NCBI GenBank assembly: GCA_035530515.1
Contig: DATKUO010000136.1
Span: 5,758-69,757, forward strand
DNA length: 64,000 nucleotides
Direction of reading: 5' to 3'
DNA from: Bacteroidales bacterium
GTDB taxonomy: Bacteria > Bacteroidota > Bacteroidia > Bacteroidales > VadinHA17
The translations under genes were made by a program, and so were the position numbers. Positions within the stretch are counted from its first letter, which is position 1. Every line of letters begins with the position of its first letter. The notes beneath the pieces were generated by a model. That model saw only the letters and a program-made list of their open reading frames with translations, did no database searches and had not been told where the DNA came from. Below, one piece after another: positions 693 through 15,171 of the stretch.

Positions 693-722
693 AACTCGGA
701 AAATGTTTAAATGTACCCGACT

Positions 723-827
723 TCAGGTTGAACTGTCAAGTATTCCTTGTGGGTTGAGGTTGAGGTTGCCTATTTCGCCGAGGCGGTAGATTTTAGAGAG
801 GTTGGAGACTTGGATTACGGAGGACAT
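723..827 (-). pseudogene. 5' remnant of a polysaccharide ABC-transporter ATPase (Wzt/TagH-like)
   Basis: Manual translation gives MSSVIQVSNLSKIYRLGEIG, matching the N-terminus of Wzt/TagH ATPases. It then degenerates into a caacctc word repeat and stops after 34 codons. It lies where wzt is expected, downstream of wzm. Confidence 0.4.
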
Positions 828-831
828 TTAT

Positions 832-903
832 GAAGAAGTAGGTAGTAGGAAGTAAGAAGTAAATAGTATGTAGTATGTAGTATGTAGTATGTAGTATGTA
901 GTA
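832..903. repeat. Left inverted-repeat arm of four-helix-bundle cassette 1; contains the 7-nt tandem tagtatg x5 (864-898)
   Basis: The purine-rich agtaRgt words are the reverse complement of 1301-1350. For example, gtaagaagtaaatagtatgtag matches rc(1315-1336) = gtaagtagtaaatagtaagtag. Confidence 0.8.
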
Positions 904-916
904 AAAAAGGTTCTAA

Positions 917-1297
917 TCAGGTGGGGGTGCAAAATTTCTCCGGAGTGTTTATCATCGAGTTCAGCATTTTTGCAATTTCCTGATATCTTTCCAGAAGTGA
1001 ATTATGTACTTGTTCATCAATATATTTACTGTCTTTTGACATGTTAATCCAGACTTCTGTTTCAGCTTCTTCAGCAAGTGAATCAAGCAATTTACTTACA
1101 AATGATTTAGAATACTTTCTCTTAATCCACGCTTCTGCGATGTTCGCTGGCACTGATCTTGATGATCTTCTTATTTGATCGACAAGAGAATACTTTTCTT
1201 CCTTTAGAAAGATTTTTGTAATCTCAAAAATATCCATTGCTAAATCATATGATTTTTTATATACTATTAAATCTCTAAATCCCCTGTAATTCGGCAT
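917..1297 (-). CDS. Four-helix-bundle protein (23S rRNA intervening-sequence protein family, Avd-like)
   Basis: 126 aa with family hallmarks: Y..S..L...I......P..EKYSLVDQIRRSSRSVPANIAEA. Confidence 0.85.
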   Translation of the reverse strand: MPNYRGFRDLIVYKKSYDLAMDIFEITKIFLKEEKYSLVDQIRRSSRSVPANIAEAWIKRKYSKSFVSKLLDSLAEEAETEVWINMSKDSKYIDEQVHNSLLERYQEIAKMLNSMINTPEKFCTPT

Positions 1298-1300
1298 TAT

Positions 1301-1350
1301 CTTACTTTCTTATTCTACTTACTATTTACTACTTACTACTTACTATTCTT
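1301..1350. repeat. Right inverted-repeat arm of four-helix-bundle cassette 1
   Basis: The run cttactttcttattctacttactatttactacttactacttactattctt is complementary to 832-903. Confidence 0.8.
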
Positions 1351-1354
1351 AAAC

Positions 1355-2055
1355 TTAGACAGTATCAACGAACGTCTTCTCCGTTTTATTAAAAATAACT
1401 ATGCCTAAAACGAGAACAATCAAGGTAATAATTGCAGAATACCCGATGCTCCATGCGCTGAATTCACCTTTCCCCAGAAAACTATAACGAAAAGCTTCGA
1501 TGATGCCGGTCATTGGGTTGAGCTCAATGATATGTTTGTATTTTTCTGGTGCTGCACTAAGTGGATAAATAACTGTTGTGGTGTACATCAGTAATTGCAC
1601 CCCGAAAGTGACCAGGAATGCCAGATCACGGTATTTGGTGGTAAAATAAGCCTCGGGAAATAAACCTTACCAAAAATTTGTGAATTATCCTTAAAAACAG
1701 TACTTGTTTTAGTAAGGCAGTCTGCGAAGTAATTCCATGCAGTAATGCCTGCCAGATAAAACAGTGGCTGTGGAAGGCCATCAGTACTGATAGCCGCCAG
1801 ACTACCAAAGACAAAAGTGTAAATTATGGTGGTAAAAAGAGGCTGTATAAAAAACCAAAGCGGCCCCAGGATGGTTTGTTTGTAAAAGCTCACAAAGTCG
1901 CGCTTTACAAACATCGCCAACAAATCGCGGTAGCGCCAGACGTCTCTGAATTTAAGATCGAAAAGAGAGGAAGAACCTTCAATTACAAGATCCCATTCAT
2001 TATCAGGAGTTACGCGTTTAGTGTTTCGTGCTTCGTGTTCAAGGTTCGATTGCAT
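1355..2055 (-). pseudogene. wzm: ABC-2 polysaccharide/O-antigen export permease (Wzm-like) with an internal deletion plus frameshift
   Basis: Two ORFs (1588-2055 and 1355-1600) carry the N- and C-terminal parts. At the junction the sequence reads ...FGKVYFPRLIL, then in the next frame TTKYRDLAFLVTFGVQLLMYTTTVIYPLS. The roughly 75 aa of membrane helices normally found between these motifs are absent. Confidence 0.7.
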
Positions 2056-2150
2056 GCAATGTTATAGCGTTAAGTGTTATGACGTTATGCCTTCATTTAC
2101 ATCATCAGTTGGATTTGATTCGTAGTTGAAGGCTTGACTTTATTTAGAAC

Positions 2151-2552
2151 CTATTTACTTCTTGCCGGAAATTTTATTACAAAACCGACCAAAAATAATC
2201 CAGACAGGGCACCAACAAGATACCAGATAAAATCGAATGGGTTAAAAGTGCTGCCAAACAGCGCTCTGAAAAAATAGTTTTTTCTGAATAACTCTAATGT
2301 CGGAGTGTGAATTAACTGTGAAAATTCAATTATGCAGGTAATACAAAGGACAATTAGTGATATTTTTATTGGTTCGGCCTTAGGAAAACCCAGTGATGCC
2401 AAAACAATAAAAAATATAACGTAAATTACTCCTCCCAGATAATTGGTAACAAATTCACTGCCGCTGCCAGAATAAACTTTTGTTAATAACCCGATTGGTA
2501 TAAGGATTATTACCAGGGAGAGTTTAATGAAGGTTTGTTTTTTGATTTGCAT
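2151..2552 (-). CDS. Small polytopic membrane protein, DUF2809-like
   Basis: 133 aa with 4 predicted TM helices. The pattern YSG....F..NYLGGVIYV ... EFSQL ... G.TF...D...Y..GA matches the family. Confidence 0.45.
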   Translation of the reverse strand: MQIKKQTFIKLSLVIILIPIGLLTKVYSGSGSEFVTNYLGGVIYVIFFIVLASLGFPKAEPIKISLIVLCITCIIEFSQLIHTPTLELFRKNYFFRALFGSTFNPFDFIWYLVGALSGLFLVGFVIKFPARSK

Positions 2553-2772
2553 GAACTCTTAGTAATTGTCTATTAAGATAAAAGACAAAAGTATAAAGAC
2601 AAAAGTGAAGAAAAGGCACAGGGCGCATGGCGCATTGCGCATAGTATATCAATAATTGATTTAATAGTTAATTTCTTCCGCTTTGCACTGTGCTACATAG
2701 GGCGAAAGGCCTCACAATAGTTCAGAGCAGGAGAAGTACCCGAACGCATCAACTGAGCTGATAAATTTGTCA

Positions 2773-2967
2773 TCAGGCAAATTCGTATTCAACAGAATTA
2801 AGACTTCCCATTTTCTTTGATGCATCTATAACTTCGATAGCAACAATATTACCTGATTTATCATAATCAAAGATTATACCGGACTTGTCTTCGCCGCTCT
2901 CCGATATAGCTTCATCAGAAAACCGGAAATAAATTATATCGCTTTCTTTGTCATATTTTATCTTCAT
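2773..2967 (-). CDS. DUF2283-family small protein (antitoxin-like partner of DUF4258)
   Basis: 64 aa: MKIKYDKESDIIYFRFSD...IIFDYDKSGNIVAIEVIDASK. Confidence 0.65.
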   Translation of the reverse strand: MKIKYDKESDIIYFRFSDEAISESGEDKSGIIFDYDKSGNIVAIEVIDASKKMGSLNSVEYEFA

Positions 2968-3205
2968 GATATTTACTTATTTTGGATGTTTTATATGCTG
3001 TTATTACCAAATTTGGTTGTTTCAATGTATTTACAAAAATACGTATAAGAAAGTTTCTATCAAAGGTTAAAGCCTGATAAACAGCAATTTCTTTACCTTG
3101 TTTTAAAACAAGATCAGGTTTCTTCAAAACTGAATTTATTTCATCCACAATTATTCCCCTGAGTCTGATTTGCTCAAGACAGTGCTTTGAAATTATATAT
3201 TCCAT
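2951..3205 (-). CDS. DUF4258-family small protein (toxin-like)
   Basis: The start is moved to the internal ATG (MEYIISKHCLEQIRLRGIIVDEINSVL...). The upstream part of the track ORF translates word-repeat DNA. The gene overlaps the DUF2283 gene by 17 nt. Confidence 0.55.
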   Translation of the reverse strand: MEYIISKHCLEQIRLRGIIVDEINSVLKKPDLVLKQGKEIAVYQALTFDRNFLIRIFVNTLKQPNLVITAYKTSKISKYHEDKI

Positions 3206-3284
3206 TATCACTATTTCGTTAATAACCTTCTTAGAGCTGAGCGTTTTAAGAAGGCGCAGGGCGGAGAGCGGAGAGCGTTTAGTC

Positions 3285-3312
3285 AAGACAAAAGTCACAA
3301 GACAAAAGTAAA
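3285..3312. repeat. Left inverted-repeat arm of four-helix-bundle cassette 2 (aagacaaaag words)
   Basis: aagacaaaagtcacaagacaaaagtaaa is complementary to the cttttgtctt words at 3801-3858. A same-orientation copy lies at 2578-2606. Confidence 0.7.
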
Positions 3313-3327
3313 TTGGGTATTATGTGT

Positions 3328-3765
3328 TTATTCTCGTGATTTTTGGACGATGGAGCCGAGAATCTTTTTAAGCTCTCCAGACTCCTTTATTAAATAATCA
3401 AGATCAGAATTATTTACTTCTTGGACTGTCCTTTTTATTATTCTAAGCCAATAATTTGATTCTCTCATTTCTCTTAATGAAATCCGGACCTTATTAGTAA
3501 AGTCTGGTTTTGATGAGCCACCCTGAGCTTCCCTGCCCTGTCAAATAAGCTAAACTTCTTAAGACATAAGTAAAATATAAATCCTTTAACATTTTGATGC
3601 AATTTGACAGGGCGAGTAATTTGCTCCGGATGAACAGGCACTTTTTGATAATTGCGTCCGGATGGTTTTATTTTCAGGGGAATACGGCAGCGTTTTCAAA
3701 AATTCAATGACTTTTACTGCAAACTCAAAAAGCCTATCACATAAGTCATTCTTCTTATCTTCCAT
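3328..3765 (-). pseudogene. Four-helix-bundle (23S rRNA IVS protein family) gene interrupted by a small palindromic insertion
   Basis: Manual translation gives MEDKKNDLCDRLFEFAVKVIEFLKTLPYSPENKTIRTQLSKSACSSGANY, then about 80 nt containing stop codons. It resumes as EAQGGSSKPDFTNKVRISLREMRESNYWLRIIK...LKKILGSIVQKSRE*. Confidence 0.75.
3533..3615. mobile_element. MITE-like insertion with perfect 12-bp terminal inverted repeats
   Basis: gccctgtcaaat (3535-3546) and atttgacagggc (3602-3613) flank a 55-nt AT-rich core. The element sits exactly at the break in the four-helix-bundle reading frame. Confidence 0.6.
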
Positions 3766-3800
3766 AGTTTTTTTCGCCTTTTATCATTTAAATTCTCTAA

Positions 3801-3858
3801 ACTTTTGTCTTTCAGCTTTCTTCCTCCTTTTATCTTTTTACTTTTATCTTTTGTCTTT
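3801..3858. repeat. Right inverted-repeat arm of four-helix-bundle cassette 2
   Basis: acttttgtctttcag...tttttacttttatcttttgtcttta is the reverse complement of the aagacaaaag words at 3285-3312. Confidence 0.7.
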
Positions 3859-3859
3859 A

Positions 3860-6289
3860 TTACTCTTCCGTATAATACCCCTGCGTCTTATCTGAATAAC
3901 CATATCGGCCATAGTAACCCCTGTTGTAATAGTTGAGGCCATAGGAGTAACCATATCCCTGTGCATAACCATAGCGCATACCGTAACCGTAGTACCCGGT
4001 AAGACTTATGTCGTTTATTACAATGGCCATATTCTTAAGTTCGCCATGGTTGTTTAGCTGATCTATCAGTTCGAGTGTATTACGCGAGGAGTATCGCTGG
4101 CGTACTATAAACAGGTTAACGTCAACAAACCGGGCAAGTAAGAGAGCATCTGTAACTATAGCAACCGGAGGAGTATCAATAATTATATAATCATATTCTT
4201 TCTTAGCTCTTTCCATAAACTTTTTCATCAGTTCCGTCTCGATAAGTTCAGCAGGGTTTGGAGGTATGGGTCCGGATGGGGCGTAAAAAAGATTATCAAT
4301 CTGTGTTTTCTTAATTATCTCTTCATAATTACAGTTACCGCTGAGGTATGTGCTCATACCCGGACTATCGTCGAATTCAAAAACCCTGTTGATTCGTGGT
4401 TTCCTCAGGTCAAGCCCCACCAGAAGAACTCTTTTGCCAAGCATTGCTGTTATGGCTGCCAGGTTTACAGCAATAAATGTCTTACCCTCCATACTAATAG
4501 TTGATAAAACGGCGATAACCGATACTTCATTTTCCTTAACAAAATATTTTATCGCAGTCCGGACAGACCTGAACGACTCAGCAAGCGACGAACCGGGTTT
4601 TTCGACAACCAGTATCTCACTCTTCCCCTCTTTATGACTGATATATCCGATTACAGGAACTTTTGTCTTTCTCTCGATATCTTTTTTATCTATTACCTTA
4701 TCATTGAAAAAGTCAATCAGTGCAATTAATGCAGCAGGTAACATTAATCCCAGTATAAGGGCAATAATAATGTTATTCCTGGCTTTTGGTTTAATAAGTG
4801 CCGAACTGTAGAACGAAGCCGGGTCAATAATACGGTTGTCGGATACATTGGATGCCCTTGCAATACCCGATTCAGACCGTTTTTCGAGAAGATAGGTATA
4901 GACAGTATTGTTAAGATCGAAGACCCTCTGAATATTAATGAAATTCCTTTCCGTTGAAGGAAGTTTACTGATCTCAATCTCCACGCCGGATATTTTCCTG
5001 TCCGATTCAGCAATGATCTGCTTAAGTCCCGCGATCCCGTTTTTCACATTCTCCCTGAGAGCTTCTCTGGCCTCATCTGTTTGTTTATTGAGAAGAGCAT
5101 GAGCAGGCTGGTCACCACTTATGTTGAAACCGATCCTTTCCATCTCCTTCTGGTATGCAGAAAGCTCATTTACTAACCTTATGAGTACCGGGTCGGCTAT
5201 TCCCATTACCGAAGGGGAGAAAATCGCTCCTCCGGTATTCTTTATATTGAGATATTCAGACAGGTAGTTGTAGTACTGAAGCTGCAGATTAAATGAGGCT
5301 CTTTCATTCTCAAATTTCTCCAGCCTGTTCTGGATAAGCGAACCCTCCCTGCTTAGATCAACAAACCTGTTCTTCAATCTGAAACTTTCAAGTTTCTCTT
5401 CTGCTTTCGAGAGGGAGTCCGATATTATATTAAGCTGAGCATCAATAAATTTAATTGTGCTGTCGGCTGTCCGGTTTTTATTGTCGACACCATATCCTAT
5501 ATATTCTCTCATCAGTGTATTAAGATAATCGGCTTCCTGCCGGGGCACTGATCCTGAAACCGAAAGTGCAACGAGCGATGCATCCTTTTCGATAGGCGCC
5601 ACAGATAATTTGGCCCGGTATTCCGTAGCAAGAGCCCCGGGTTCTGTAAACCAGAAATAGTATCTGTTTGAGCCGTCTTCCAAACATACTGTGTCACCGG
5701 GAATCCTCTTTTCAATTGTGAAGTCAAAGCCAAATTCAGTAAAACGATCCCCAAAACTCATCTCGTCAACAAAATTCAGATCCCCATCGAGACTGATACG
5801 ATATTTTTCTTCAGACAGTATTTCTATATCGACCCTGAATCCTTTCGGCTCAACCTCAAGGGAATCATAAACCACCCTGAAGGGACATGTATTATACATC
5901 CTTGATTCAACTATCTTCCTTCTTCCGACACCCACATAAATCACATGAAAATCCTTCAGCTTTTCCATCACCGCATAATTGAGCCTGAATGATCTGAGGA
6001 TGCCCATCTCATTTATCAGGTTTTGTTGACTCTTGAAAATATCTCCTCCCGGCAGTATACTTGCAACATTACCGCTCATGTTGGCCATCTGATCATCTTT
6101 AATCAGCAGAGAAGATGATACAGTGTAGATCTTCTCTGAATACCTGTTTATCCCATAGGCCAGTGTCACAGCAATAAACAAGGTAATGGCAAACCAGTAC
6201 CAGTTGCTTATGAAAAGAGACAGATATCTCTTTATATCGATGTTTTCGTCTTCGGGGAAATTTGGTTGGGAGGGGTAGTTGGGGTCCAT
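3860..6289 (-). CDS. wzc: Polysaccharide co-polymerase / BY-kinase (Wzc/GumC-like tyrosine autokinase)
   Basis: 809 aa. It has an N-terminal Wzz-like domain with two TM segments and a long coiled coil. The C-terminal P-loop domain (SMEGKT, IIIDTPP) is followed by a Tyr-rich tail, GYYGYGMRYGYAQGYGYSYGLNYYNRGYYGRYGY. Confidence 0.85.
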   Translation of the reverse strand: MDPNYPSQPNFPEDENIDIKRYLSLFISNWYWFAITLFIAVTLAYGINRYSEKIYTVSSSLLIKDDQMANMSGNVASILPGGDIFKSQQNLINEMGILRSFRLNYAVMEKLKDFHVIYVGVGRRKIVESRMYNTCPFRVVYDSLEVEPKGFRVDIEILSEEKYRISLDGDLNFVDEMSFGDRFTEFGFDFTIEKRIPGDTVCLEDGSNRYYFWFTEPGALATEYRAKLSVAPIEKDASLVALSVSGSVPRQEADYLNTLMREYIGYGVDNKNRTADSTIKFIDAQLNIISDSLSKAEEKLESFRLKNRFVDLSREGSLIQNRLEKFENERASFNLQLQYYNYLSEYLNIKNTGGAIFSPSVMGIADPVLIRLVNELSAYQKEMERIGFNISGDQPAHALLNKQTDEAREALRENVKNGIAGLKQIIAESDRKISGVEIEISKLPSTERNFINIQRVFDLNNTVYTYLLEKRSESGIARASNVSDNRIIDPASFYSSALIKPKARNNIIIALILGLMLPAALIALIDFFNDKVIDKKDIERKTKVPVIGYISHKEGKSEILVVEKPGSSLAESFRSVRTAIKYFVKENEVSVIAVLSTISMEGKTFIAVNLAAITAMLGKRVLLVGLDLRKPRINRVFEFDDSPGMSTYLSGNCNYEEIIKKTQIDNLFYAPSGPIPPNPAELIETELMKKFMERAKKEYDYIIIDTPPVAIVTDALLLARFVDVNLFIVRQRYSSRNTLELIDQLNNHGELKNMAIVINDISLTGYYGYGMRYGYAQGYGYSYGLNYYNRGYYGRYGYSDKTQGYYTEE

Positions 6290-6296
6290 GGGGTAA

Positions 6297-6344
6297 GATG
6301 TTATGGCGTTATGATGTTATGGCGTTATGATGTTATGGCGTTTT
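6297..6344. repeat. 16-nt tandem repeat gatgttatggcgttat x3
   Basis: Copies at 6297-6312 and 6313-6328 are identical; the 6329-6344 copy differs at one position. The array lies between the wzc start and the four-helix-bundle stop, and the last copy overlaps the ORF end. Confidence 0.9.
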
Positions 6345-6713
6345 ATTGTTAGGCGGTATGGATTTGAAATATTTTGTGAGAGCGCTGAGTTTGTTGGAGA
6401 CTTTTTCAATTTGCTTTCGTATTTCAGTGTATTGATCTTCATTAATATATTTTAAGTCAAGGGATGCAATAGTTTGATTAAGTAATTCCATAAGACTTGA
6501 ATATGCTATTGTCATGAAATTTGATTTGTCTTTCCCTGTTGATCTATAGGAACCTTCGACAATGTTAGAAGAAACTGAAATTACTGACCTTCTCATCTGA
6601 TTAGTAATTCCAAATTTCTCGTCATCGGGAAATCCTTTGGTGATAGTATAAACCATTTTCGTTAATTCTCTGGAATCATTCCAAACCTCTAATTTTTCAA
6701 ACGAATATTTCAT
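6333..6713 (-). CDS. Four-helix-bundle protein (23S rRNA IVS protein family)
   Basis: 126 aa: MKYSFEKLEVWNDSRELTKMVYTITKGFPDDEKFGITNQMRRSVISVSSNIVEGS. Confidence 0.85.
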   Translation of the reverse strand: MKYSFEKLEVWNDSRELTKMVYTITKGFPDDEKFGITNQMRRSVISVSSNIVEGSYRSTGKDKSNFMTIAYSSLMELLNQTIASLDLKYINEDQYTEIRKQIEKVSNKLSALTKYFKSIPPNNKTP

Positions 6714-6801
6714 TTCAAGTGTTATGGCGTTATGTGTTATGTTTTGTCAGTTGGATTTGAAAACTTAAATCTTAACACTTTGCTCTTCGTTATTCATTTA
6801 A

Positions 6802-6898
6802 GGTGTGTAATAGAATAAACTATTCACTTGCAATACATATAATATTGAATGTCAAACTATTAATAAATATTGTTGCACAACTTATTTTATTACACACC
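6802..6898. repeat. 17-bp inverted repeat (1 mismatch) with a 63-nt loop at the 3' end of the AlbA_2 gene
   Basis: ggtgtgtaatagaataa (6802-6818) pairs with ttattttattacacacc (6882-6898). The right arm covers the stop codon and last codons of the 6882-8291 gene. Confidence 0.6.
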
Positions 6899-8291
6899 CT
6901 AAATAATACCCTCCTGTTTTTTTACTGCCCCGGCGTTCAATCAGATTCTTTTTAATCAAGATTCTGACATGCTTGTCCACAGTACTAAAGGGCATTTTTA
7001 ATTCCTGTGACAATAGGCTGGCATTTATTCCTTCGTGTTTTTTTATAGCCTGGTAAACAGATGTTTGTCCAGTATTTAATTCGCCATTTAATTCGCCATT
7101 TAATTCGCCATTTTTCAAATTATGATAATCCAAAGGCACTTTTGAAATAAAAATATCTTCTTCAGAAAACACAATTTTATCACTGCCCGAATAGGCTTTT
7201 GAATACTTATACACATTGCGAATCCCTGTACCTAACTCTTCGGACCGTCCCAATTGGGTGAACAATTGGGCTATATTTGGGTTTTTAGGAAAAGCCTGAA
7301 ATGTGTCGGGATAAAGCTGTCCATAAACATGGGGTTTATTGGCATTTTGAGTTTCTACTCTGTCTTTATAAATGATAAATGTAGATGGAAATGCATTTGT
7401 GTATTCGCGATGAATAAGCATATTGGCTATAATTTCACGAAATATTTTTTCTCTTAAAGATATCCGTTGGTCGCCTTCCAGGTAAAACTTATCCGGCAGA
7501 TGTTTTGCCACAAAATTCATTAATTTGTCATACGCTTCGATTAAATTGCATTGAATATTTTCACGGTCGTCGTAACGGTCCAAATCAACTTTTCGCAAAA
7601 CAGCATCTATCTTATAATGTGGAATAGCACTTTGAATCGTTTCAACTTTCCCAAACATCAATAAAGCCGCCATTGTAAAACCCTCAATGCCAGAGGCAAA
7701 ATCTTTTCTATAGAGGCCTGCTGTTCTATAAAATTCTTCGTTCGAAAGTTCGTTCCAAGGGTGATTTGCCCGGTTTATTTTGATAATTTTACGAACATGT
7801 TCCACTATTCCTGGTACAAAATCGGACTCAAATAAAAACGGATAAATAGTATTTTCGGAATAAAGCAAATTTTTTCGTGTATAAAGATTTTTGATTTGAG
7901 CATCGGCCTTTATCTCAAAATCGCCATCAGCGCTTCTGTCAAATACCTTTCCATTGCAGCGATGCACCTGCGAAGATATGGGCACAAAAACATGAATCAG
8001 CATTTTACCTTCATACTCAACAATTTTTGGCTCAATGAGAAACGACGGAAAGAGCTTTTGTTGATTGTTGCTCAAGTTGGCAATATTTTTACACAGGATC
8101 TCCACCGAATTTGGATTCACGCCTTCAATGGTTTTATCATCGCTTACACCCAACAAAATAGTCCCACCATTGCGATTTAGAAATGCGCACACAGAATCAA
8201 AAAAATTATCGGGGAGATGACAGGTTGCTTTCTTAAATTCGACAGAAATGCCTTCTCCTTGTTCTAATAACTGTTGGATGTTTACATTCAT
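6882..8291 (-). CDS. AlbA_2 (Schlafen-like) DNA-binding domain protein with HATPase_c_4-like and C-terminal wHTH regions ('RecG-like' putative regulator)
   Basis: 469 aa. The N-terminus reads E.E.VEFK....P..F...VCAFLNRNGGTILLGV.D...I.GV. The C-terminus reads KHVRILIKKNLIERRGSKKTGGYY. Confidence 0.6.
   Translation of the reverse strand: MNVNIQQLLEQGEGISVEFKKATCHLPDNFFDSVCAFLNRNGGTILLGVSDDKTIEGVNPNSVEILCKNIANLSNNQQKLFPSFLIEPKIVEYEGKMLIHVFVPISSQVHRCNGKVFDRSADGDFEIKADAQIKNLYTRKNLLYSENTIYPFLFESDFVPGIVEHVRKIIKINRANHPWNELSNEEFYRTAGLYRKDFASGIEGFTMAALLMFGKVETIQSAIPHYKIDAVLRKVDLDRYDDRENIQCNLIEAYDKLMNFVAKHLPDKFYLEGDQRISLREKIFREIIANMLIHREYTNAFPSTFIIYKDRVETQNANKPHVYGQLYPDTFQAFPKNPNIAQLFTQLGRSEELGTGIRNVYKYSKAYSGSDKIVFSEEDIFISKVPLDYHNLKNGELNGELNGELNTGQTSVYQAIKKHEGINASLLSQELKMPFSTVDKHVRILIKKNLIERRGSKKTGGYYLGCVIK
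7074..7109. repeat. In-frame 12-nt tandem repeat x3 inside the AlbA_2 gene
   Basis: atttaattcgcc occurs at 7074-7085, 7086-7097 and 7098-7109. It encodes the NGELNGELNGELN stretch of the protein. Confidence 0.9.
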
Positions 8292-8330
8292 AAAGTTTTG
8301 GGCGTTGGGCGTTATATGCGACTGCGTCGT

Positions 8331-8463
8331 GTTATGGAGTTATGGGGTTGTTGCGTTATGGCGTTATGGCGTTGTGGTGTAAGAAATTGGAATTTCATTT
8401 ACTAAAATGTGTCATTCTCCCAACATTCCTTCATAACAATATAACGACACAACAACATAACAA
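8331..8463. repeat. ORF-less long hairpin built from gttatggc / gccataac words
   Basis: The left arm is gttatggagttatggggttgttgcgttatggcgttatggcgttgtggtg. The right arm is cataacaatataacgacacaacaacataacaa, which is about 75-80 % complementary. The loop is about 50 nt, in the wza-to-AlbA_2 spacer. Confidence 0.65.
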
Positions 8464-8468
8464 TTTAT

Positions 8469-9257: not shown

Positions 9258-9312
9258 AAGACTATGTTTCTGGTTTATCGTTTCGTGTTTTCCGTTTTAG
9301 GTAAGTCAATGC

Positions 9313-10776
9313 TTAAATAACGTTGACCTTTTTATTACTTATTTTACGTTCCAGATACAAATATGCAGCAGAGACGTAATATACTCCCAATCCCAGAATA
9401 AGAGATTCTGCAGGGAATTTAAATCTATTAGCATCATTGAGTACATTTGCATAGAAATTTATGACAGGGAAATACCATATAAAAGCATATAAAATAATCA
9501 ATTTATAACTTTTCGCTATCTCATTTCTTAAAATTATTATTAGTGAATGGAACAAAGATACAGCAAACACAGTTACAGAGATGAACAGGAAGAGAAACTT
9601 ATATAATTTAATTATTAAATCCGGCAACATGTTCAGATTCATTGACATATCTGCCGGAAGCGTTGGTGAAACATATTTGAAGGTATATAGAAATGAAAAG
9701 ATTTTCAATTTCAATAATTCGTGCCTGTTTTGAATAGCGATCTCCTTATAAAAAGGCTTTAATTTTTCCCCCAAAATATTAATGTTCTTCGAAGAATAGG
9801 AAAGGTTAAAGTAGCTTAATAAACCGGGTTCAGCTAACGAATAAAGAAAAAATCCATTGGCGGGTGGCTTGAAAAAATCATCAGCTTTTCTGATTACAGG
9901 AATATTCAATAAAGAAGCCTTTCTTATTCCCCGGCTCGTATCCTGTTCAGCCAATTTAGCTTTCGCATTCAGGAATATCTGAAGAACCTCTTTGTTCTCA
10001 TCAGTAACAACATTGTTTTCATTTATCGTGGCAGGAATTGCCCACCTCTGGCCCGCAATCTGCATCGGAAAGATATTATAAAAGCCTCTGCTTTGATAAT
10101 TATATAACGCCCATAAATTTAATACTAACAACGAACTTATTGTTACGATTGCCACACCGGGAAAGAGTATTCTAAATTTGTGAAAACCCTCATGGGATAA
10201 ATGTATTATAATAACTAATGCTAAAAGAATAAGAGGTACACCCAGTGCATTAAATCGTGCAAGTACCATTAAACCGGATAATAATCCTGCCAAAAAAATG
10301 TTTCTTCTTCTTCCATTTGAATAATACATTAAAACCTTATGAACCAACATTGTAAAAATAAACAATGAGAGAATTTCAGAAAGAATGTTATAAGCAAATG
10401 CTATAGTGCTAAGGTTTATTATACCAAATAACCCTGCAAAAAAAGCAATTTTATCATTAGCGATCAGGATAATAAAAATCCGATAAACATAAATTGCTGT
10501 AATAAAAACCAGCAGATACTGTAGAATCATCACAGGAAAAATAAAATTGGTCTCTCCGAAAATAAGCATTACAAGTCCAAGAAGTAAAGAATATAATGGT
10601 GATCTGTGGCTAAGATCAAATAAAGAGGCTCCGGGGATATGAAATATCTGCTTCGCAAGGTTTATATATGCTGAAGCATCTCCCTGTATAACAGGCTTAA
10701 AAACCAGTATGAAGGTAATACAAAGTATTCCGTTAATCAACAAAAAAAGATTAAAGGATAAAGGTTTAATTCTCAT
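9313..10776 (-). CDS. Polytopic membrane protein, GT-C (ArnT/PMT_2-like) glycosyltransferase candidate
   Basis: 487 aa with at least 10 TM helices. An early periplasmic-loop acidic motif (GDASAYINLAKQI) is present. It overlaps the upstream GT2 gene by 11 nt. Confidence 0.4.
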   Translation of the reverse strand: MRIKPLSFNLFLLINGILCITFILVFKPVIQGDASAYINLAKQIFHIPGASLFDLSHRSPLYSLLLGLVMLIFGETNFIFPVMILQYLLVFITAIYVYRIFIILIANDKIAFFAGLFGIINLSTIAFAYNILSEILSLFIFTMLVHKVLMYYSNGRRRNIFLAGLLSGLMVLARFNALGVPLILLALVIIIHLSHEGFHKFRILFPGVAIVTISSLLVLNLWALYNYQSRGFYNIFPMQIAGQRWAIPATINENNVVTDENKEVLQIFLNAKAKLAEQDTSRGIRKASLLNIPVIRKADDFFKPPANGFFLYSLAEPGLLSYFNLSYSSKNINILGEKLKPFYKEIAIQNRHELLKLKIFSFLYTFKYVSPTLPADMSMNLNMLPDLIIKLYKFLFLFISVTVFAVSLFHSLIIILRNEIAKSYKLIILYAFIWYFPVINFYANVLNDANRFKFPAESLILGLGVYYVSAAYLYLERKISNKKVNVI

Positions 10777-11701
10777 TCTCCTTTTTTTTAATAATATAAC
10801 CCGGCCTGTTTTTTACCTCACAAAGTATCCTCCAAATATACTCTCCAATTACACCTAGCGCAAATAGGATTAAACCTGAAAAAAAAGCAAAGAATGATGT
10901 AAATGGTGACCAGAATGAACTTTTGATACTATAAAACACCTCAAGCTTATCTATAACATTTATTGAAAAAGAAAAAACAGACAACAAGCTTATAATTATC
11001 AGAGAAAGACCAATATATTTAATAACTTTTATGGGAAACAGGGACGTCGGGTAAATCATGTCATTTAATAATTTCCTTTTCTTTTTTGAAGTCCACCGTG
11101 ACTTTTTAATATTACTTTTTACCCTCGCATATGGGAAAAAATATGGATTATATCCTAAATTCAATAATTCTGATACTATTGAAATGTTTGTCGGGTTAAT
11201 CTTGTCTAAAATATCTATTAATTCTCTATCTATCAGAAATGAATCTGCGCCACCATAGGGATATTTAATATCCGAGAGCCAGCTCAATATTTTATAGAAA
11301 AAATTCGTTGCTACTGCCCGGAAGAATCCATCATCGCGACTGATCCTATTTGGAATAATTACTTTTTGACCTTTTTCCCACAGACGATACATTTCCACAA
11401 TGGTTTCATATGGCTGTTGCTCATCGTCAGGGATTGGCATCGCACAATCCCCTTTACAAACACTAAGCCCTGCAAAAACAGCATAATGTGAGGTATAGTT
11501 TCTGGAAAGTTGAAATGCTCTCACATTAGTATTCCCCTTTTCAAGTTCGAGTGCTATTCTAAAAGAATTATCTTCTGATCCATCATCCACAATGATGAGT
11601 TCAAATGGAATATTATTGGCACCCAAAAGTTCGGTTAGTTTATTATAAACCAAACTAATCCTCTCTCCACTAAAATATGATAATAAAATTACACTTAACA
11701 T
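10766..11701 (-). CDS. GT2 glycosyltransferase with C-terminal TM helices (GtrB/ArnC-like polyprenyl-phosphate glycosyltransferase)
   Basis: 311 aa. It shows LSVILLSY, a DDGSEDNS (DxD-type) motif, and two C-terminal TM helices typical of GtrB/ArnC enzymes. Confidence 0.7.
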   Translation of the reverse strand: MLSVILLSYFSGERISLVYNKLTELLGANNIPFELIIVDDGSEDNSFRIALELEKGNTNVRAFQLSRNYTSHYAVFAGLSVCKGDCAMPIPDDEQQPYETIVEMYRLWEKGQKVIIPNRISRDDGFFRAVATNFFYKILSWLSDIKYPYGGADSFLIDRELIDILDKINPTNISIVSELLNLGYNPYFFPYARVKSNIKKSRWTSKKKRKLLNDMIYPTSLFPIKVIKYIGLSLIIISLLSVFSFSINVIDKLEVFYSIKSSFWSPFTSFFAFFSGLILFALGVIGEYIWRILCEVKNRPGYIIKKKENEN

Positions 11702-11755
11702 TACTTTATCAGGTGTTGACTAATTCAAATAAAAAACAGTGGAAAACAAATAATA

Positions 11756-12928
11756 CTAATTAAAGCTGTTTAATATGTTAACAATTGTTTTAACCTCATA
11801 ATCTGTCATCACAGGAGAGATTGGCAGGGATAAAACCTCTTTGTGGATCTGTTCGGTTACCGGCAAACTAATATTTTCAAATTCTATAAAAGCTTTTTGT
11901 TTATGAGGCGGTATAGGATAATGTATCAATGTCTGTATCCCTTTTTCTGTAAGATACTCCTGCAATTTATCTTTTTCAGGGTGGCGAATAGTAAAAAGGT
12001 GCCAGACATGGTCAAGGCGCAGGGTACTGGGCGCAGGGCTCAGGGCAGAATCTGATACAGCTGACTTCCGGGTCTCAGTTCCAAACTCTGAGCTATTTAA
12101 GCAAGGTAAAATAATTTCCGGGTGTTTGATATTATCAAGATAAAATTGTGCAATTTCACGTCTTCGCTGGTTTTCCTGATCAAGGTATTTGAGTTTTATT
12201 GATAAAAACCCTGCCTGGATCTCATCCATCCTGCTATTTAGACCCTTATACTCGTTTAAATACTTTATTTTGCTTCCATAATTAGCGATAGTACGTATTG
12301 CTTCAGCCAATCTTTCATCATTTGTAGTTACAGCCCCCGCATCGCCTAATGCTCCCAGATTTTTACCCGGATAAAAACTATTTCCTGCTGCATCGCCAAG
12401 TGATCCGGTTCTCTTTCCATTCCACAAAGCTCCAATAGCATGTGCATTGTCTTCAATAATCTTCAGGTCATGTAATTTAGCAATCTTCTCAAGTTCATAA
12501 GACCAACATGGCCTTCCATAGAGATGGACAATCATAATAGCACGAGTCCGGCTTGTTATATGCTGTTCAATCTGGGAAATATTGAGATTATATGTGCTGA
12601 TCTCCGGTTCCACAAGCACCGGCTTTAGCCGGTTTTCAGAAATTGAAAGTATTGTAGCTATATAAGTATTAGCTGGTACTATTACTTCATCTCCTTCCTT
12701 AAAAATCCCCAATTCAATATATGCTCTAAGGATTAACCGCAAAGAATCCAGACCATTAGCAACTCCTACAGCCCGATTCACTCCAATATAATTTGCAATT
12801 TTTTTTTCAAATTCATTTACCTTTTCTCCCAGTATATACCATCCTGAATCAATAACCTCATTTGCGACTCGTTTTAATTCTTGTCTGTATCGCATATTAA
12901 TTTTTTGGATATCAAGGAATTTAATCAT
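11756..12928 (-). CDS. DegT/DnrJ/EryC1-family PLP sugar aminotransferase (FdtB/QdtB-like) carrying an atypical insertion
   Basis: The start is moved to [14 protein letters not shown]... (ATG at 12928), overlapping the acetyltransferase stop by 8 nt. Family motifs include [13 protein letters not shown] and HVWHLFTIR...[13 protein letters not shown]. See the insertion finding. Confidence 0.8.
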
Positions 12929-13688
12929 GCTCAAGTGATTCTTGCCAAACAGAAAAATCCAGTCCTTCCCAAGGCATGCCTTTATCAAAATTATAAGGCC
13001 AGGGATAATGATTAACTCCATTAGTTAAAAAATCCCTGATATCACTAACCACTCTGCCTGGCGAACCAATACACACTGAAAAATCAGGAATATCATTTGT
13101 TACAACCGTAGAGGCCCCAATCAGACAATTTACACCTATTTCAATTCCAGGTAATATAACACAGTTAACTGCAATAGCAGTATAATCGCCAATTATAGGA
13201 GACCGCTTGTTATTAGAAGGAAGCGCGAAATCGTTTGTTAATATCGTTCCGGGGGATATCCATACAAAATTACCAATTATACTGTTTTCAACAATACATA
13301 CATTACTATGAATGCTGGCATATTTTCCTGTTTTTACATTACCATGCAATTCTGAATAATTTCCGATCCTGCTACCTTCCCCAATAGAGTTGCCTTCACG
13401 AAGCATAATCCGGTGACCTGTTGAAACTTTATCTCCGATAGTATTTCCATTATATATTATGGCATGACTTCTTATCAGGCAATCCTTGCCAATAATGGTC
13501 GTTGTGTTTGAATATTTTTCATTATAATAATAATCCTTAGAAGGTTCGCCAATTATGCAATCATTTGCAATTATTGTTCCATCATCTATTAAAGTATTAT
13601 CATAAATAACAGTATTATCACCAATCTTTACATTTTCACCAATATGAATATTATCCCCATTTAAATGGAATTTATTATTAAATTTCAT
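12921..13688 (-). CDS. Left-handed beta-helix (hexapeptide-repeat) sugar N-acetyltransferase (FdtC/QdtC-like)
   Basis: 255 aa with many [LIV]G..xx[LIV] hexapeptide repeats. It lies between the cupin isomerase and aminotransferase genes. Confidence 0.7.
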
Positions 13689-14098
13689 TTAGTATAGATT
13701 TTATAATTATCATAGTCCCTGATATAATCATCTTCACTATAAACAGATGAGGCTATAACCAAACAAACAGATCCTGAGGAGAAATCCTTTTCAGTTGCCC
13801 AGATTCCTGGTGGAATATAAAGTCCGGAGGATGGACTTTTCAATGCAATTATTTTCCTGTTTATACCATCGTCCATCTCAACATCAAAACTCCCACTTAC
13901 AGCAATTAATAACTGATGGCATGTTTTAAGTGCATGAGCCCCTCTTGATAAACCCCCAGGAATATCATAAATATAAAATACTCGCTTTATTTCAAAAGGA
14001 AAGTTCATCCCATTCTCCACAAAGGAGATATTTCCGGCTCTGTATTCAATACACGGTAACTTCAATAATACACAATCATCAATTGATGCTTTATTCAT
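13685..14098 (-). CDS. WxcM-like cupin (FdtA/QdtA-type dTDP-4-keto-6-deoxyhexose 3,4-isomerase), copy 2
   Basis: 137 aa: FPFEIKRVFYIYD.P....RG.HA.K.......A..GSF.V..DDG. There is a 4-nt ATGA overlap with both neighbours. Confidence 0.7.
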   Translation of the reverse strand: MNKASIDDCVLLKLPCIEYRAGNISFVENGMNFPFEIKRVFYIYDIPGGLSRGAHALKTCHQLLIAVSGSFDVEMDDGINRKIIALKSPSSGLYIPPGIWATEKDFSSGSVCLVIASSVYSEDDYIRDYDNYKIYTK

Positions 14099-14508
14099 TT
14101 CGTAATATAATACTGATAATTCCCGTAATCCCTTATATAATCACTTTCATCAAAACCAGAGGATGAAAGAACCATAGCTACTGAATTAGTGCTGAAATTT
14201 TCGATGTGACGCCATAATCCATTAGGCAGATAAAGTCCAAAATAAGCTCGATTAAGATGATACCCCTTTTCCTTTTTCCCATTATAAACCACTACATCAA
14301 AACTACCTGATAAGGCAACCACAAACTCATGTTGTTTTAAAAAAGCATGCCCTTCACGTCTTCCTCCTCCCGGGACATCGTAAACCCAATAAACACGCTT
14401 AATCTCAAATGGTATCAGGCTACCCTCTAAACAAGTAAGATTCCCTCGAACATCTACAATTTTTGGCAGATAAATGATATATGGTGATTTCAGCTCTATC
14501 ATTGCCAA
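14095..14508 (-). CDS. WxcM-like cupin (FdtA/QdtA-type isomerase), copy 1
   Basis: 137 aa and paralogous to the 13685-14098 gene: IPFEIKRVYWVYDVPGGGRREGHAF. Confidence 0.7.
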   Translation of the reverse strand: MAMIELKSPYIIYLPKIVDVRGNLTCLEGSLIPFEIKRVYWVYDVPGGGRREGHAFLKQHEFVVALSGSFDVVVYNGKKEKGYHLNRAYFGLYLPNGLWRHIENFSTNSVAMVLSSSGFDESDYIRDYGNYQYYITK

Positions 14509-14606
14509 TAAAAACTATTGCTTCAGCTTATTCATTTAAATTCAGGCAAGCTTTCGCCCCGTCAGTCATAGGATAAGGAGAAAGGGAAAAGGAGAAAGGG
14601 AAAAAT

Positions 14607-14635
14607 GCAAAGAGCATAGCGCCTGGCGCATTGCG
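14607..14635. repeat. Left inverted-repeat arm of four-helix-bundle cassette 4
   Basis: gcaaagagcatagcgcctggcg resembles rc(15014-15035) = gcaaagggcatagtgcaaggcg, matching at 18 of 22 positions. Confidence 0.7.
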
Positions 14636-14641
14636 AAAAAA

Positions 14642-15001
14642 TTAGCTTAGTGATTTCCTGAATAATGTAATCTTCCTTGACAAATGATCAAGATTTTCTT
14701 TATGGAATTCAAGAACATCCCTTGCAATATATTCAGACTCATAAAGAACAACTAGAATATTAACACATTCAAAAACTGACCTCCTGGAAATATTAAGAAA
14801 TTGCGCAAACTCCTTATCAGAAAATGATCCAGAACCCTCAGCAATATTGTTAGTTATACTCATAGTTGCAGCCCTAAGTTGCTCAGCAAACCTGTAAAGT
14901 TTTCTCTGCTCCAGATCATTCGCTATTACAAGCAGTGATTTGGTAACCTGAATCCCATTTTTCCAAATTTCAAAATCCTCAAACCTGAATACAGCTTTCA
15001 T
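14642..15001 (-). CDS. Four-helix-bundle protein (23S rRNA IVS protein family)
   Basis: 119 aa: FEIWKNGIQVTKSL......L....LYRFAEQLRAATMSITNNIAEGSG. Confidence 0.8.
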   Translation of the reverse strand: MKAVFRFEDFEIWKNGIQVTKSLLVIANDLEQRKLYRFAEQLRAATMSITNNIAEGSGSFSDKEFAQFLNISRRSVFECVNILVVLYESEYIARDVLEFHKENLDHLSRKITLFRKSLS

Positions 15002-15013
15002 AAATCATTTTTA

Positions 15014-15050
15014 CGCCTTGCACTATGCCCTTTGCGCCATGCGCCTTGCT
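15014..15050. repeat. Right inverted-repeat arm of four-helix-bundle cassette 4
   Basis: cgccttgcactatgccctttgcgccatgcgccttgct is complementary to 14607-14635. Confidence 0.7.
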
Positions 15051-15171
15051 GCCCGCAGGGCACGCTTCCGCCCCGTCAGTCACATCCCTGGAGAAGGCTA
15101 ACAAAGTCATTTGCAGAATGTTGGCAACAATTTTGGGAAAAACAAAACTGTTAGCTATATTAATATTTTAG

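Follow-up and report, generated by a model that had tools for sequence, protein, structure and literature searches.

The window that we analysed, a 64-kb stretch of Bacteroidales DNA, contains five small ORFs that a preliminary description had assigned to a single family of four-helix-bundle (4HB) paralogues. This assignment held, as all five match PF05635 (E values of 2e-15 to 2e-35) and exceed the curated cut-offs of TIGR02436. A search of the 64-kb window beyond these five genes revealed no sixth 4HB copy or remnant. The 4HB proteins have a median pI of 8.6, which is mildly basic. We know of no catalytic activity for this fold, which is not that of an HUH transposase.

Paired word arrays around the five genes

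Each gene is associated with arrays of short tandem words, which we refer to as arms. Cassette 1 is on the minus strand, where its neighbours are a split ABC-2 permease gene and an ABC ATPase gene whose start lies at 827. Its 126-aa gene (917-1297) is preceded by a 5′ arm of TAGTAAG/TAAGTAG words that on the gene's strand is nearly without C (1301-1350), and is followed by a 3′ arm of period 7 that lacks G on the same strand and ends a few nt ahead of the downstream ATG (832-903). Cassette 2, also on the minus strand, has a 5′ arm of AAAGACAAAAG words as read on the gene's strand (3801-3858) and a 3′ arm at 3280-3312. Its gene (3328-3765) had been described as disrupted, and we found that it is broken by a 77-nt insert (3536-3612) with the terminal inverted repeats ccctgtcaaat/atttgacaggg. 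This insert is a remnant, now without an ORF, of a GIY-YIG-like element, an intact copy of which is present at the same site in L008. Cassette 4 (minus strand) consists of a 5′ arm of GGCGCAWRG words (15014-15050), a 119-aa gene (14642-15001) and a 3′ arm (14607-14635); outside it lie the two copies of a direct repeat, TGACTGACGGGGCG (14555-14568 and 15069-15082), that is unique in the window. In cassette 5, on the plus strand, the 5′ arm of GGCGTCRGGCATC words (38709-38745) begins 5 nt past the stop codon of a sugar-transferase gene. The 117-aa 4HB gene (38851-39204) starts about 105 nt after this arm, and its final codons contain the 3′ arm (39171-39195).

Complementarity of the flanks had been claimed for these four cassettes. 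When whole cassettes were folded with ViennaRNA, the arm-arm stem was part of the minimum-free-energy structure of cassettes 1, 2, 4 and 5, with 33, 23, 20 and 19 pairs, respectively. Moreover, as a partner of the 5′ arm, the cassette's own 3′ arm outscored all 76 foreign 3′ arms in each of the four. Folding and cross-pairing thus both upheld the claim.

Cassette 3 (minus strand) is arranged differently. Its 126-aa gene (6333-6713) has CATAAC arrays in direct orientation on both sides as read on its own strand, one immediately upstream (6719-6742) and the other being the 3′ arm (6297-6360). The latter is a 16-nt double word repeated four times that overlaps the end of the ORF, stops about 8 nt ahead of the wzc ATG, and differs in copy number among strains. 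The complementary arm, made of GTTATG words on the gene's strand, is found 1.7 kb upstream immediately past the wza stop codon (8432-8463), beyond an inserted AlbA_2/Schlafen-like gene (6882-8291, minus strand). This distal arm can form a duplex of −30.9 kcal/mol with 6290-6365, as well as a local solo hairpin (8331-8463) with a further minus-strand CATAAC array (8331-8381). Relatives that lack the AlbA_2 gene have the order wza-arm-4HB-arm-wzc. The AlbA_2 gene had been presented as lacking complementary spacers; because the GTTATG arm lies beyond it, it is in fact bracketed by complementary arrays.

Many arrays in the window are not accompanied by any detectable 4HB gene or remnant. Words of cassettes 2 and 4 adjoin each other at 2570-2612 and 2613-2645 without a 4HB gene, and the solo hairpin at 8331-8463 bears the words of cassette 3. 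Five solo arrays belong to the cassette 5 family (22095-22118, 23903-23933, 27888-27922, 29595-29630 and 51184-51213). Elsewhere in the window, 7 of 19 solo arrays use the words of cassettes 2, 4 or 5. Another solo hairpin (20946-21040) is built of GTTGAAGG / TTCAACCT words, a family also found on both sides of 4HB genes in L041, another Bacteroidales genome. Each cassette had been described as using a different word family, but the words are shared with solo arrays.

Flank complementarity across the 4HB family

We compared 76 homologous 4HB genes from at least eight phyla with 453 control ORFs from the same loci. The median flank-complementarity score was 16 for the 4HB genes and 8.5 for the controls, and 67% of the former exceeded the control 95th percentile as compared with 4% of the latter (Mann-Whitney p = 2e-30). 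In an unbiased scan of about 690 kb, 60 of 87 strong inverted-repeat pairs enclosed a 4HB gene. Strictly periodic arrays were 16 times as dense within 200 nt of the ends of 4HB genes as elsewhere, and 44 of the 93 strict arrays in all loci sit away from 4HB genes. Of 77 arms, the own arm ranked first as partner in 28 loci, and it did so in four of the five window cassettes. The suggestion that an ORF inside a stem marks the 4HB family was thus borne out, and both isolates and MAGs from many phyla show the pattern.

The preliminary description had also called for dinucleotide-shuffled controls. With 100-nt flanks, which did not reach the 5′ arm of cassette 5, only cassette 1 clearly exceeded its shuffles (z = −4.7). 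Cassette 4 had the lowest duplex energy among 62 genes, yet its z was only −1.4 because the shuffles retain the complementary composition. The flanks of control genes and cross-pairing between cassettes are the better controls, and it is these that were decisive.

The geometry of the cassettes is regular. Arm periods are 7 or 8 nt only, the median arm length is 36 nt, and 55 of 60 cassettes have a 5′ arm rich in G/T. Because this G/T-then-A/C polarity reads the same on either strand, it says nothing about which way transcription runs. A median of 4 nt lies between the upstream stop codon and the 5′ arm, and the downstream ATG follows the end of the 3′ arm by a median of 10 nt. Co-directionality with both neighbours was observed for 67 of 73 4HB genes (92%), and no intrinsic terminators were found at cassette edges. 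The adjoining genes include obg, wbqC-like, proline and cas genes and many others. Arms of this kind also accompany at least one non-4HB cargo, a DUF559 gene, and there their words match those of the adjoining 4HB cassette. From these data we conclude that the architecture exists, that it is specific to the 4HB genes as a class, and that it is general.

Turnover of cassettes at operon junctions

The wza-wzc junction was compared among relatives whose Wzc proteins are 64-90% identical. Three 4HB families that are only 28-36% identical to one another occupy this junction, each with a separate word family. One junction holds an ORF-deleted relic that retains the arms and the initial 14 nt of the ORF, and others contain solo hairpins or are empty. 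At least one solo configuration, that of L092, is demonstrably a cassette minus its ORF. In distant relatives the junction is tight and free of arrays. Even in different contexts, 4HB genes that share 75% identity or more have their arms in common (flank similarity of 21.8 versus a background of 8.0), and one MAG holds two paralogous cassettes with an identical word family. Gene and arms thus travel together as one unit. The W1 and L090 cassettes encode proteins that are 59% identical and have unrelated words.

Array length varies as well. Between the 4HB gene and wzc, the 3′ array measures 69, 77, 85, 137 or 150 nt across strains and relatives and differs by 16 nt in otherwise identical strains, all of this variation being between assemblies rather than inside one population. 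Since the 4HB ORF extends into the array, C-terminal tails vary among orthologues. The dN/dS between orthologues of cassette 3 is 0.04-0.13, and the protein is under purifying selection. The unit behaves like a cassette that is gained and lost. We found no transposase, integrase or general target-site duplication at the cassettes.

A proposed intervening-sequence type of cassette and its alternatives

Several known systems resemble these cassettes. The 23S rRNA intervening sequences (IVSs) with an S23p/IVP ORF, as in Leptospira and Coxiella burnetii (PMC4990558), share the PF05635 gene, a size class of about 430-550 nt, complementary termini that enclose the ORF in a 20-30 bp stem, a sporadic distribution that suggests horizontal gain, and the lack of a recognisable mobility gene. 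RNase III cuts the 28-bp stem at the termini of the Coxiella IVS, and the ORF of that IVS is decaying (PMC4990558), whereas the window-type 4HB protein is under strong purifying selection. RNase III excision, demonstrated for IVSs, would be extended to the 4HB cassettes by analogy. IVSs reside in helix 25 or 45 of 23S rRNA, whereas the present cassettes lie in spacers between protein-coding genes of operons. There is no rRNA in the window, and five 23S rRNA motifs were absent from 80 of 80 loci. The arms also differ: they consist of 7-8-nt words in tandem, and their G/T-to-A/C polarity is fixed. Such words were described in Geobacter metallireducens as paired tandem octa-/heptanucleotide 'global regulator binding sites' (Aklujkar et al. 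2009, PMC2700814). Those sites comprise three to five tandem 7-8-nt words (e.g. GTTGCTYN, TCTCCGTS and MTYCTGA) in opposite-strand pairs at variable distance, and lie in operon spacers such as nifD-nifK and proB-proA. The sites, presented as free of genes and as targets of unknown regulators, attract IS110 and IS481 insertions (PMC2700814). A link to PF05635 genes was never made.

Avd of diversity-generating retroelements has a homologous, pentamer-forming fold, and Avd binds RNA stem-loops beside a duplex of the distal sequences that bracket the template RNA (bioRxiv 10.1101/2023.10.23.563531). However, the window proteins fall short of the cut-off of the Avd equivalog model (30-35 bits versus 80), and no reverse transcriptase or template/variable repeat adjoins any cassette. 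Integron gene cassettes, too, are small ORFs without promoters that join a transcribed array in the same orientation, and the structure of their imperfect inverted repeats matters more than the sequence, but they have a single attC at the 3′ end and require the IntI integrase and an attI site. The 4HB cassettes have two arms flanking the ORF, no integrase nearby, and are scattered in ordinary operons. REP/REPIN elements are dispersed, short, hairpin-forming intergenic repeats in which one kind of gene (RAYT) typically lies between inverted copies, and solo copies belong to the same sequence family as the gene-flanking ones. Each REP family has one RAYT, an HUH tyrosine transposase, whereas the 4HB protein has no catalytic motif known to us and occurs in several copies, each accompanied by a different word family; REPs are single palindromes rather than tandem words.

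Among 62 arm pairs, G.U mismatches (94) were no more frequent than A.C mismatches (103), a ratio expected from base composition alone. Within orthologous groups, own arm pairs were no better than cross-locus pairs (21.1 versus 22.2 at the WbqC site), and the GTTATG core was retained in 9 of 9 members of one family despite dS of up to 1.3. The words are thus conserved rather than co-varying, with no fine-scale covariation.

This behaviour would fit tandem-word hairpins as the primary element, as a REP/REPIN-like dispersed repeat acting at the DNA level with the RNA stem as a by-product, which we consider possible but doubtful. The arrays could then be recombination landing pads or hairpin targets. 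Homologous exchange between same-word arrays could spread a resident 4HB gene, or this gene could encode a trans-acting maintainer like RAYT. The abundance of solo arrays in the window, with five cassette 5-family copies within 30 kb, the DUF559 arms, and the AlbA_2 gene between direct CATAAC arrays, which fits recombination within arrays, are all consistent with this explanation, as are the 24 + 21 + 8 gene-less site pairs of G. metallireducens with IS110/IS481 at fixed distance (PMC2700814). It is opposed by the 16-fold enrichment at 4HB gene ends and the 60 of 87 inverted pairs, by L092, where the solo form derives from a cassette, by the array-free junction of distant relatives, by the unrelated words of W1 and L090, and by a fold for which we know of no catalytic activity and which is not that of an HUH transposase. 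It is unlikely that the arrays are instead binding sites for a protein that reads 7-8-nt words, with the cassette autoregulated or regulating its operon rather than a selfish insert. Candidates would be a nucleoid protein, as proposed for Geobacter, or the 4HB protein, whose five subunits per pentamer compare with about 4.5 words per arm and which is mildly basic, strongly conserved and related to the RNA-binding Avd. The confined periods, the arm length, a word core kept past the needs of pairing, and the view of the Geobacter authors all point in this direction. Nevertheless, such binding is putative, array copy number differs among strains, proteins 59% identical bear unrelated words, and binding by itself does not account for two complementary arrays.

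A role of the arrays as phase-variation tracts, in which 8-nt slippage alters the 4HB C-terminus and start-codon spacing and so switches polysaccharide genes, appears highly improbable. The 16-nt strain difference, the variable tails and the frequent surface-polysaccharide hosts fit; the same cassettes beside so many other genes, the mutual complementarity of the arrays, and differences seen between assemblies do not. Chance complementarity of low-complexity intergenic DNA was refuted: shuffled flanks of cassettes 2, 4 and 5 do reach comparable duplex energies, but the control genes, cross-pairing, the inverted-pair scan and recurrence across phyla leave it virtually no room.

We therefore favour, with about even confidence, an IVS-type passenger cassette in operon spacers. 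The unit is a ~120-aa 4HB gene (PF05635) with paired terminal inverted arrays of 7-8-nt words, placed in sense orientation in the spacer where two host-operon genes adjoin. The gene and its arms persist and relocate jointly; cassettes are gained, replaced and lost at operon junctions and decay to ORF-less hairpins and solo arrays, and slippage alters array length. Because the arms occupy the entire spacer, their pairing in the polycistronic RNA would loop the cassette out and leave some 15 nt between the upstream stop and downstream start codons, at the foot of a 20-35 bp helix similar to the duplex that RNase III cuts in rRNA intervening sequences with the same gene. We infer the looping, the in vivo stem, RNase III cutting, preserved coupling of the cistrons and the way of movement. 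The proposal of an IVS-like design inside a protein-coding operon thus gains from layout, specificity, co-directional operons and turnover, but not from an RNA signature.

The stem-flanked 4HB layout is far more general than the five copies in the window. The paired tandem-octamer sites of Geobacter have been known since 2009, but had at no point been connected with the PF05635 gene.

The 4HB genes of the polysaccharide locus and their flanking arrays

The preliminary description had recognized five paralogues of a small four-helix-bundle (4HB) family at 917-1297, 3328-3765, 6333-6713, 14642-15001 and 38851-39204 (cassettes 1 to 5, each comprising the ORF and its flanking arrays). We found that all five scored above the curated cut-offs of the models for the 23S rRNA intervening sequence (IVS) protein, also called S23p or IVP (Pfam PF05635, 57-122 bits, cut-off 33.8; TIGR02436, 81-115 bits, cut-off 24). 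The closest solved structure by sequence match was the pentameric four-helix-bundle protein XCC0516 (PDB 2GSC chain A; E = 2.9e-23, residues 5-114). A sensitive scan revealed no additional 4HB copy or remnant in the window. The minus-strand host region of the cassettes is a polysaccharide locus encoding two FdtA proteins, a hexapeptide transferase, a DegT aminotransferase, a GT2 protein, Wza, AlbA_2, Wzc and a decaying ABC-2 permease/ATPase pair, while cassette 5 lies on the plus strand after a sugar-transferase gene. Pfam matches among the cassette neighbours were to Wzc (GNVR/AAA_31), Wza, AlbA_2, FdtA, Bac_transf, a DksA-type zinc finger, ABC-2 and DUF4258; two scanned neighbours had no Pfam match. 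No Rfam family, rRNA included, reached threshold in the window, and the arms contained no known RNA family in Rfam. A search with the cassette 3 protein identified uncultured Bacteroidales from fens and peat as the nearest genomes.

The polysaccharide ABC transporter (2-2055, minus strand) is decaying, with its ABC-2 permease in two ORFs (1355-1600 and 1588-2055) and an ATPase gene that starts at 827, reaches a stop after 34 codons and is followed by another, presumably RhuM-like, ORF. A DUF2283 and DUF4258 gene pair between cassette 2 and a DUF2809 gene (2773-3298) looks toxin-antitoxin-like, and a DUF4143/AAA_14 ATPase at the edge of the polysaccharide operon (16053-17210) matches the candidate defence family PDC-S01 (E = 2e-84).

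As first described, complementary arms flank the 4HB genes of cassette 1 (832-903 and 1301-1350), cassette 2 (3285-3312 and 3801-3858), cassette 4 (14607-14635 and 15014-15050) and cassette 5 (38710-38745 and 39171-39195). When the whole cassettes were folded, an arm-arm helix was predicted in both the minimum-free-energy structure and the ensemble (33, 23, 20 and 19 pairs, respectively), despite loops of 430-520 nt. In each of these four cases the 5′ arm paired best with the cassette's own 3′ arm, which outscored those of all 76 other cassettes. No intrinsic terminators were predicted at cassette edges in the window. We also compared the RNAduplex energy of 130-nt flanks with that of dinucleotide shuffles, the control originally proposed; pairing stood out in cassette 1 (z = -4.7) and was not significant for the other cassettes. 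Cassette 4 had the lowest duplex energy among all 62 window genes, and its shuffles were nearly as good because shuffling retains the complementary base composition. For this reason, and because the cassette 5 arm lies outside the flank used, shuffles were dropped as the main test.

Cassette 3, whose words are GTTATGNN/CATAACNN, has arrays in direct orientation immediately beside its gene. Its complementary array is at 8432-8463, immediately 3′ of wza, and pairs with the array following the 4HB gene (-30.9 kcal/mol). Thus the AlbA_2 gene (6882-8291), which had been described as unbracketed, is enclosed by complementary words. Since relatives have the order wza, arm, 4HB, arm, wzc and lack the AlbA_2 gene, this gene seems to have been inserted later between the arrays.

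Specificity and anatomy of the gene-plus-arms unit

A locus search with the cassette 3 protein as the sole query and one genome per species yielded 80 loci, drawn from Bacteroidales, Flavobacteriales, Chitinophagales, Saprospiraceae, Verrucomicrobiota, Chthonomonadia, Omnitrophota, Desulfobacterota, Ignavibacteria, Chloroflexota and two CPR groups, with several isolate genomes among them. Inspection by eye revealed the same layout in the majority of loci, each with its own words. We scored flank complementarity by local alignment of the 5′ flank with the reverse complement of the 3′ flank, using other ORFs of the same loci as controls. The median score was 16 for 76 4HB genes and 8.5 for 453 control ORFs, and 67% of the 4HB genes exceeded the control 95th percentile compared with 4% of the controls (Mann-Whitney p = 2e-30). 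Several of the top-scoring "controls" were themselves further 4HB genes. Strong inverted pairs enclosing 0.17-2.6 kb were also sought without bias across about 690 kb; of the 87 detected, 60 contained a 4HB gene, and the others mostly enclosed host genes lying between two cassettes. At distances of up to 200 nt from a 4HB gene end, strictly periodic arrays reached 16 times their density elsewhere. The unit of gene plus arms is specific and widespread, and it is sense-oriented in operons: 67 of 73 cassettes were co-directional with both neighbours.

The arm design is not exclusive to 4HB genes, since a gene for a DUF559 endonuclease-like protein on a Smithella contig (locus L074, 5058-5675) lies within arms of the same type (GTGAATAGTG / CACTATCCAC). 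These arms belong to the word family of the adjacent 4HB cassette, and the gene has an additional inner GC-rich inverted repeat.

A clear arm pair was present in 62 of 77 cassettes; the median arm measured 36 nt, the two arms were about 80% complementary, and all clearly periodic arms had a period of 7, 8 or 14 nt. G exceeded C in the 5′ arm of 55 of 60 cassettes and T exceeded A in 52 of 61 (T 40, A 27, G 24, C 9%), the 3′ arm being the mirror image. Because this polarity is alike on both strands of the inverted repeat, it is a property of the element rather than of gene direction. The arms fill the spacers closely: the 5′ arm starts a median of 4 nt after the upstream stop codon and leaves about 25 nt to the 4HB ATG, while the 3′ arm starts about 6 nt past the 4HB stop codon, frequently within the last codons, and ends a median of 10 nt before the downstream ATG. 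Stop codons in three frames were enriched in the arms (40% and 31%, versus 25% and 15% in shuffles) yet far from universal, and we rejected them as the cause of the 7- and 8-nt periods.

Members of the cassette 3 protein family were 80-96% identical where Wzc was 66-94% and Wza 72-82% identical, and dN/dS was 0.04-0.13 with dS up to 1.3. These low ratios indicate that the cassette 3 protein is functional and selected. The 4HB proteins are mildly basic, and their ORFs often extend into the 3′ array, resulting in variable C-terminal tails. None of the window 4HB proteins matched a named defence-system model; the sole defence-annotation match was a marginal one of the cassette 3 protein (E 2e-4) to a model of unknown function.

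Turnover at operon junctions

We compared the wza|wzc junction, the site of cassette 3, among 16 metagenomic loci whose Wzc was 64-90% identical to that of the window in 14 cases and 28-30% identical in two. Three of the states found at this site were different 4HB genes: the cassette 3 family with CATAAC words, a gene with GAGGNNTGAGG / CCTCAYGCCTCA words whose product was 59% identical to the cassette 1 protein and 27% identical to that of cassette 3, and a third family with GTTCAAAG / CTTTGAAC words. Other states were a G-arm fused directly to a C-arm with the gene absent, a confirmed relic in which both the 5′ arm and the 3′ array remain but the ORF is reduced to its ATG plus 14 nt, and a single C-rich array. 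Both distant relatives had no array. The junction is therefore a turnover site. At junctions the gene-plus-arms unit is both acquired and lost, and its decay leaves hairpins. Arms were still shared when 4HB genes at least 75% identical occurred in different contexts (flank similarity 21.8, background 8.0), and in one MAG the same words accompanied two paralogous cassettes located at separate sites. Across strains, the length of the array that separates the 4HB gene from wzc was 69, 77, 85, 137 or 150 nt, with 16-nt steps between otherwise identical sequences.

Target-site duplications outside the arms were absent in general (median direct-repeat score 7.0, versus 6.5 in controls), the exceptions being a tandem duplication in one compared locus (L041) and cassette 4. 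In the latter an exact 14-nt direct repeat, TGACTGACGGGGCG, unique in the window, lies just outside both arms (14555-14568 and 15069-15082) and extends to 20/24 nt over a longer stretch. Cassette 4 is the only cassette with such a target-duplication-like feature.

The 4HB gene of cassette 2, already noted as disrupted, is split by a 77-nt insert (3536-3612) with its own terminal inverted repeats, ccctgtcaaat/atttgacaggg. This insert is a selfish element nested in the cassette, here an ORF-less remnant. The orthologous cassette of a related MAG (L008, 1082-1866) has a version of about 290 nt with a GIY-YIG-like ORF at the same site. This GIY-YIG-like element and the DUF559 gene show the same life history as the 4HB cassettes in other small genes.

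Arrays without a 4HB gene were also found. Seven of 19 such solo arrays belonged to the word family of a cassette in the same window, and no 4HB remnants lay beside the solo arrays of the window analysed here; shared word families would fit either relics or REPIN-like dispersal. A composite repeat at 27860-27980, 29560-29665 and 22060-22130 combines, in this order, a terminator-like hairpin that includes a T-run, a GGCGTCRGGCATC array and AGGAACnGATAnGCAAGGGCA; in the copy at 27860-27980 these are followed by a GCATGACC array. Word arrays appear to be building blocks of larger dispersed units. A separate intergenic palindromic family, ggattgcttcgtcccgc...gggactcgcaatgac / gtcattgcgag...cgaagcaatcc (35144-35275, 40349-40487, 43475-43625 and around 29770-29810), is REP- or MITE-like and bears no relation to the word arrays. 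The cassette-bearing metagenome contigs L001-L004, L085-L087 and L094-L095 are short and often end at or near word arrays, a pattern that points to the arrays interrupting short-read assembly of polysaccharide loci.

Relation to known elements and interpretation

The closest relative of the cassettes is the rRNA IVS, which has the same gene and the same stem design in a different host molecule. Like an IVS, cassettes 1, 2, 4 and 5 have an ORF within complementary termini that are predicted to form a stem of at least about 20 bp (19 pairs in cassette 5), and cassette 3 would do so via its distal arm. IVSs are inserted in helix 25 or 45 of 23S rRNA, whereas the window cassettes have polysaccharide genes and no rRNA as neighbours. 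None of five 23S rRNA motifs occurred in any of the fetched loci, nor was a true rRNA IVS copy found among them. The Coxiella IVS ORF is decaying, whereas the cassette 3 protein is under purifying selection. Scores against NF033474, the equivalog model for the accessory variability determinant (Avd) of diversity-generating retroelements, were well short of its cut-off of 80 bits, with 29.9 and 35.2 bits for two proteins and no hit for the other three; no reverse transcriptase was found among the scanned cassette neighbours. The arms resemble the terminal inverted repeats of transposons and MITEs but without a general target-site duplication. An integron cassette has a single 3′ attC and relies on IntI and attI, whereas here there are two arms per ORF, and no integrase was present among the annotated neighbours.

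We give about an even chance to the interpretation of the cassettes as IVS-type units that loop out in RNA. The arms would close a helix of at least 20 bp, according to the folds, and in polycistronic RNA this helix could be a natural RNase III substrate, by analogy with rRNA IVSs that carry the same gene; the Coxiella IVS is removed from precursor RNA by RNase III (PMC4990558). The arms lie directly next to the stop codon of one neighbour and the start codon of the other, so their pairing would bring the original junction back together at the helix base, and this would make the insert tolerable. The homologous Avd protein binds RNA stems beside a duplex of flanking sequences (bioRxiv 10.1101/2023.10.23.563531). 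The earlier IVS-like reading is partly borne out, by a gene-in-stem unit that is specific, widespread and located in operons, but an RNA role receives no backing from wobble pairs or co-variation. Arm pairs had no excess of G.U over A.C mismatches (94 versus 103), orthologous groups showed conserved words with no lineage-specific co-variation of the arms, and the nine members of the cassette 3 family all shared a 6-nt word core. These three observations argue against a purely RNA-based reading and fit a sequence-specific, possibly DNA-level constraint, examples of which would be terminal repeats that a factor recognizes, or homology carried along by the arrays that would let them recombine with one another.

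The same observations favour a REP-like DNA element as the primary entity, which we consider clearly less likely than the IVS-type reading. Cassette arms resemble REP/REPIN-RAYT systems in being dispersed intergenic repeats, copies of which also flank a gene in inverted orientation (the seven shared solo arrays), although RAYT is an HUH (Y1) transposase whereas the flanked gene here is PF05635 and has no transposase family match. Readings of the arrays as protein-binding sites or as agents of phase variation are each less probable than the REP-like one. A broader proposal, modelled on RAYT/REPINs, seems to us improbable: PF05635 proteins with tandem-word arms might form an unrecognized pan-bacterial class of elements, in which a 4HB pentamer would bind its cognate 7-8-nt words and drive or stabilize the spread of hairpins through operon spacers. 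On this proposal the pentamer's five subunits would correspond to about five words per arm, and 23S IVSs, "CRISPR-associated" IVP genes and Geobacter "global regulator sites" would be different aspects of a single system.

The Geobacter sites, paired tandem octa- and heptanucleotides catalogued in G. metallireducens in 2009, were taken as regulator-binding and linked to no gene (PMC2700814). Their classes 1-3 resemble the arms described here in having three to five tandem 7-8-nt words in opposite-strand pairs within intergenic spacers. IVP genes within cas operons were noticed in 2013 and taken as a functional association (PMC3936711), and a 2023 survey included the family among CRISPR-linked genes (PMC10910872). 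This link with cas and CRISPR loci may be incidental, because IVP genes sit in any operon spacer and are flanked by short periodic repeats. Apart from studies of rRNA IVSs, the finding of IVP genes at cas loci and the Geobacter catalogue, we found no prior description of an operon-embedded cassette with tandem-word arms and no paper linking these three lines; most subscription journals lay outside the search, and an earlier account is possible.

The origin, mobility and function of rRNA IVSs and their S23p/IVP ORF have been in question since about 1990, and to our knowledge only a handful of cases have been studied. If the element resides mainly in operon spacers of Bacteroidota, Verrucomicrobiota, Desulfobacterota, Chloroflexota, CPR and other bacteria, the IVS question would become directly testable in Flavobacterium and Bacteroides strains that can be cultivated, where natural variants would number in the hundreds, both filled and vacant sites would be available and the protein is evidently selected. 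A single explanation would then cover the paired octamer repeats that genome annotations leave unaccounted for, and the reported "association" of IVP genes with cas operons and the assembly breaks in polysaccharide loci would likewise be explained. Moreover, the element would point to a route by which inserts might become harmless for operon expression, through looping out and perhaps RNase III processing, that could be reused in synthetic operon design.
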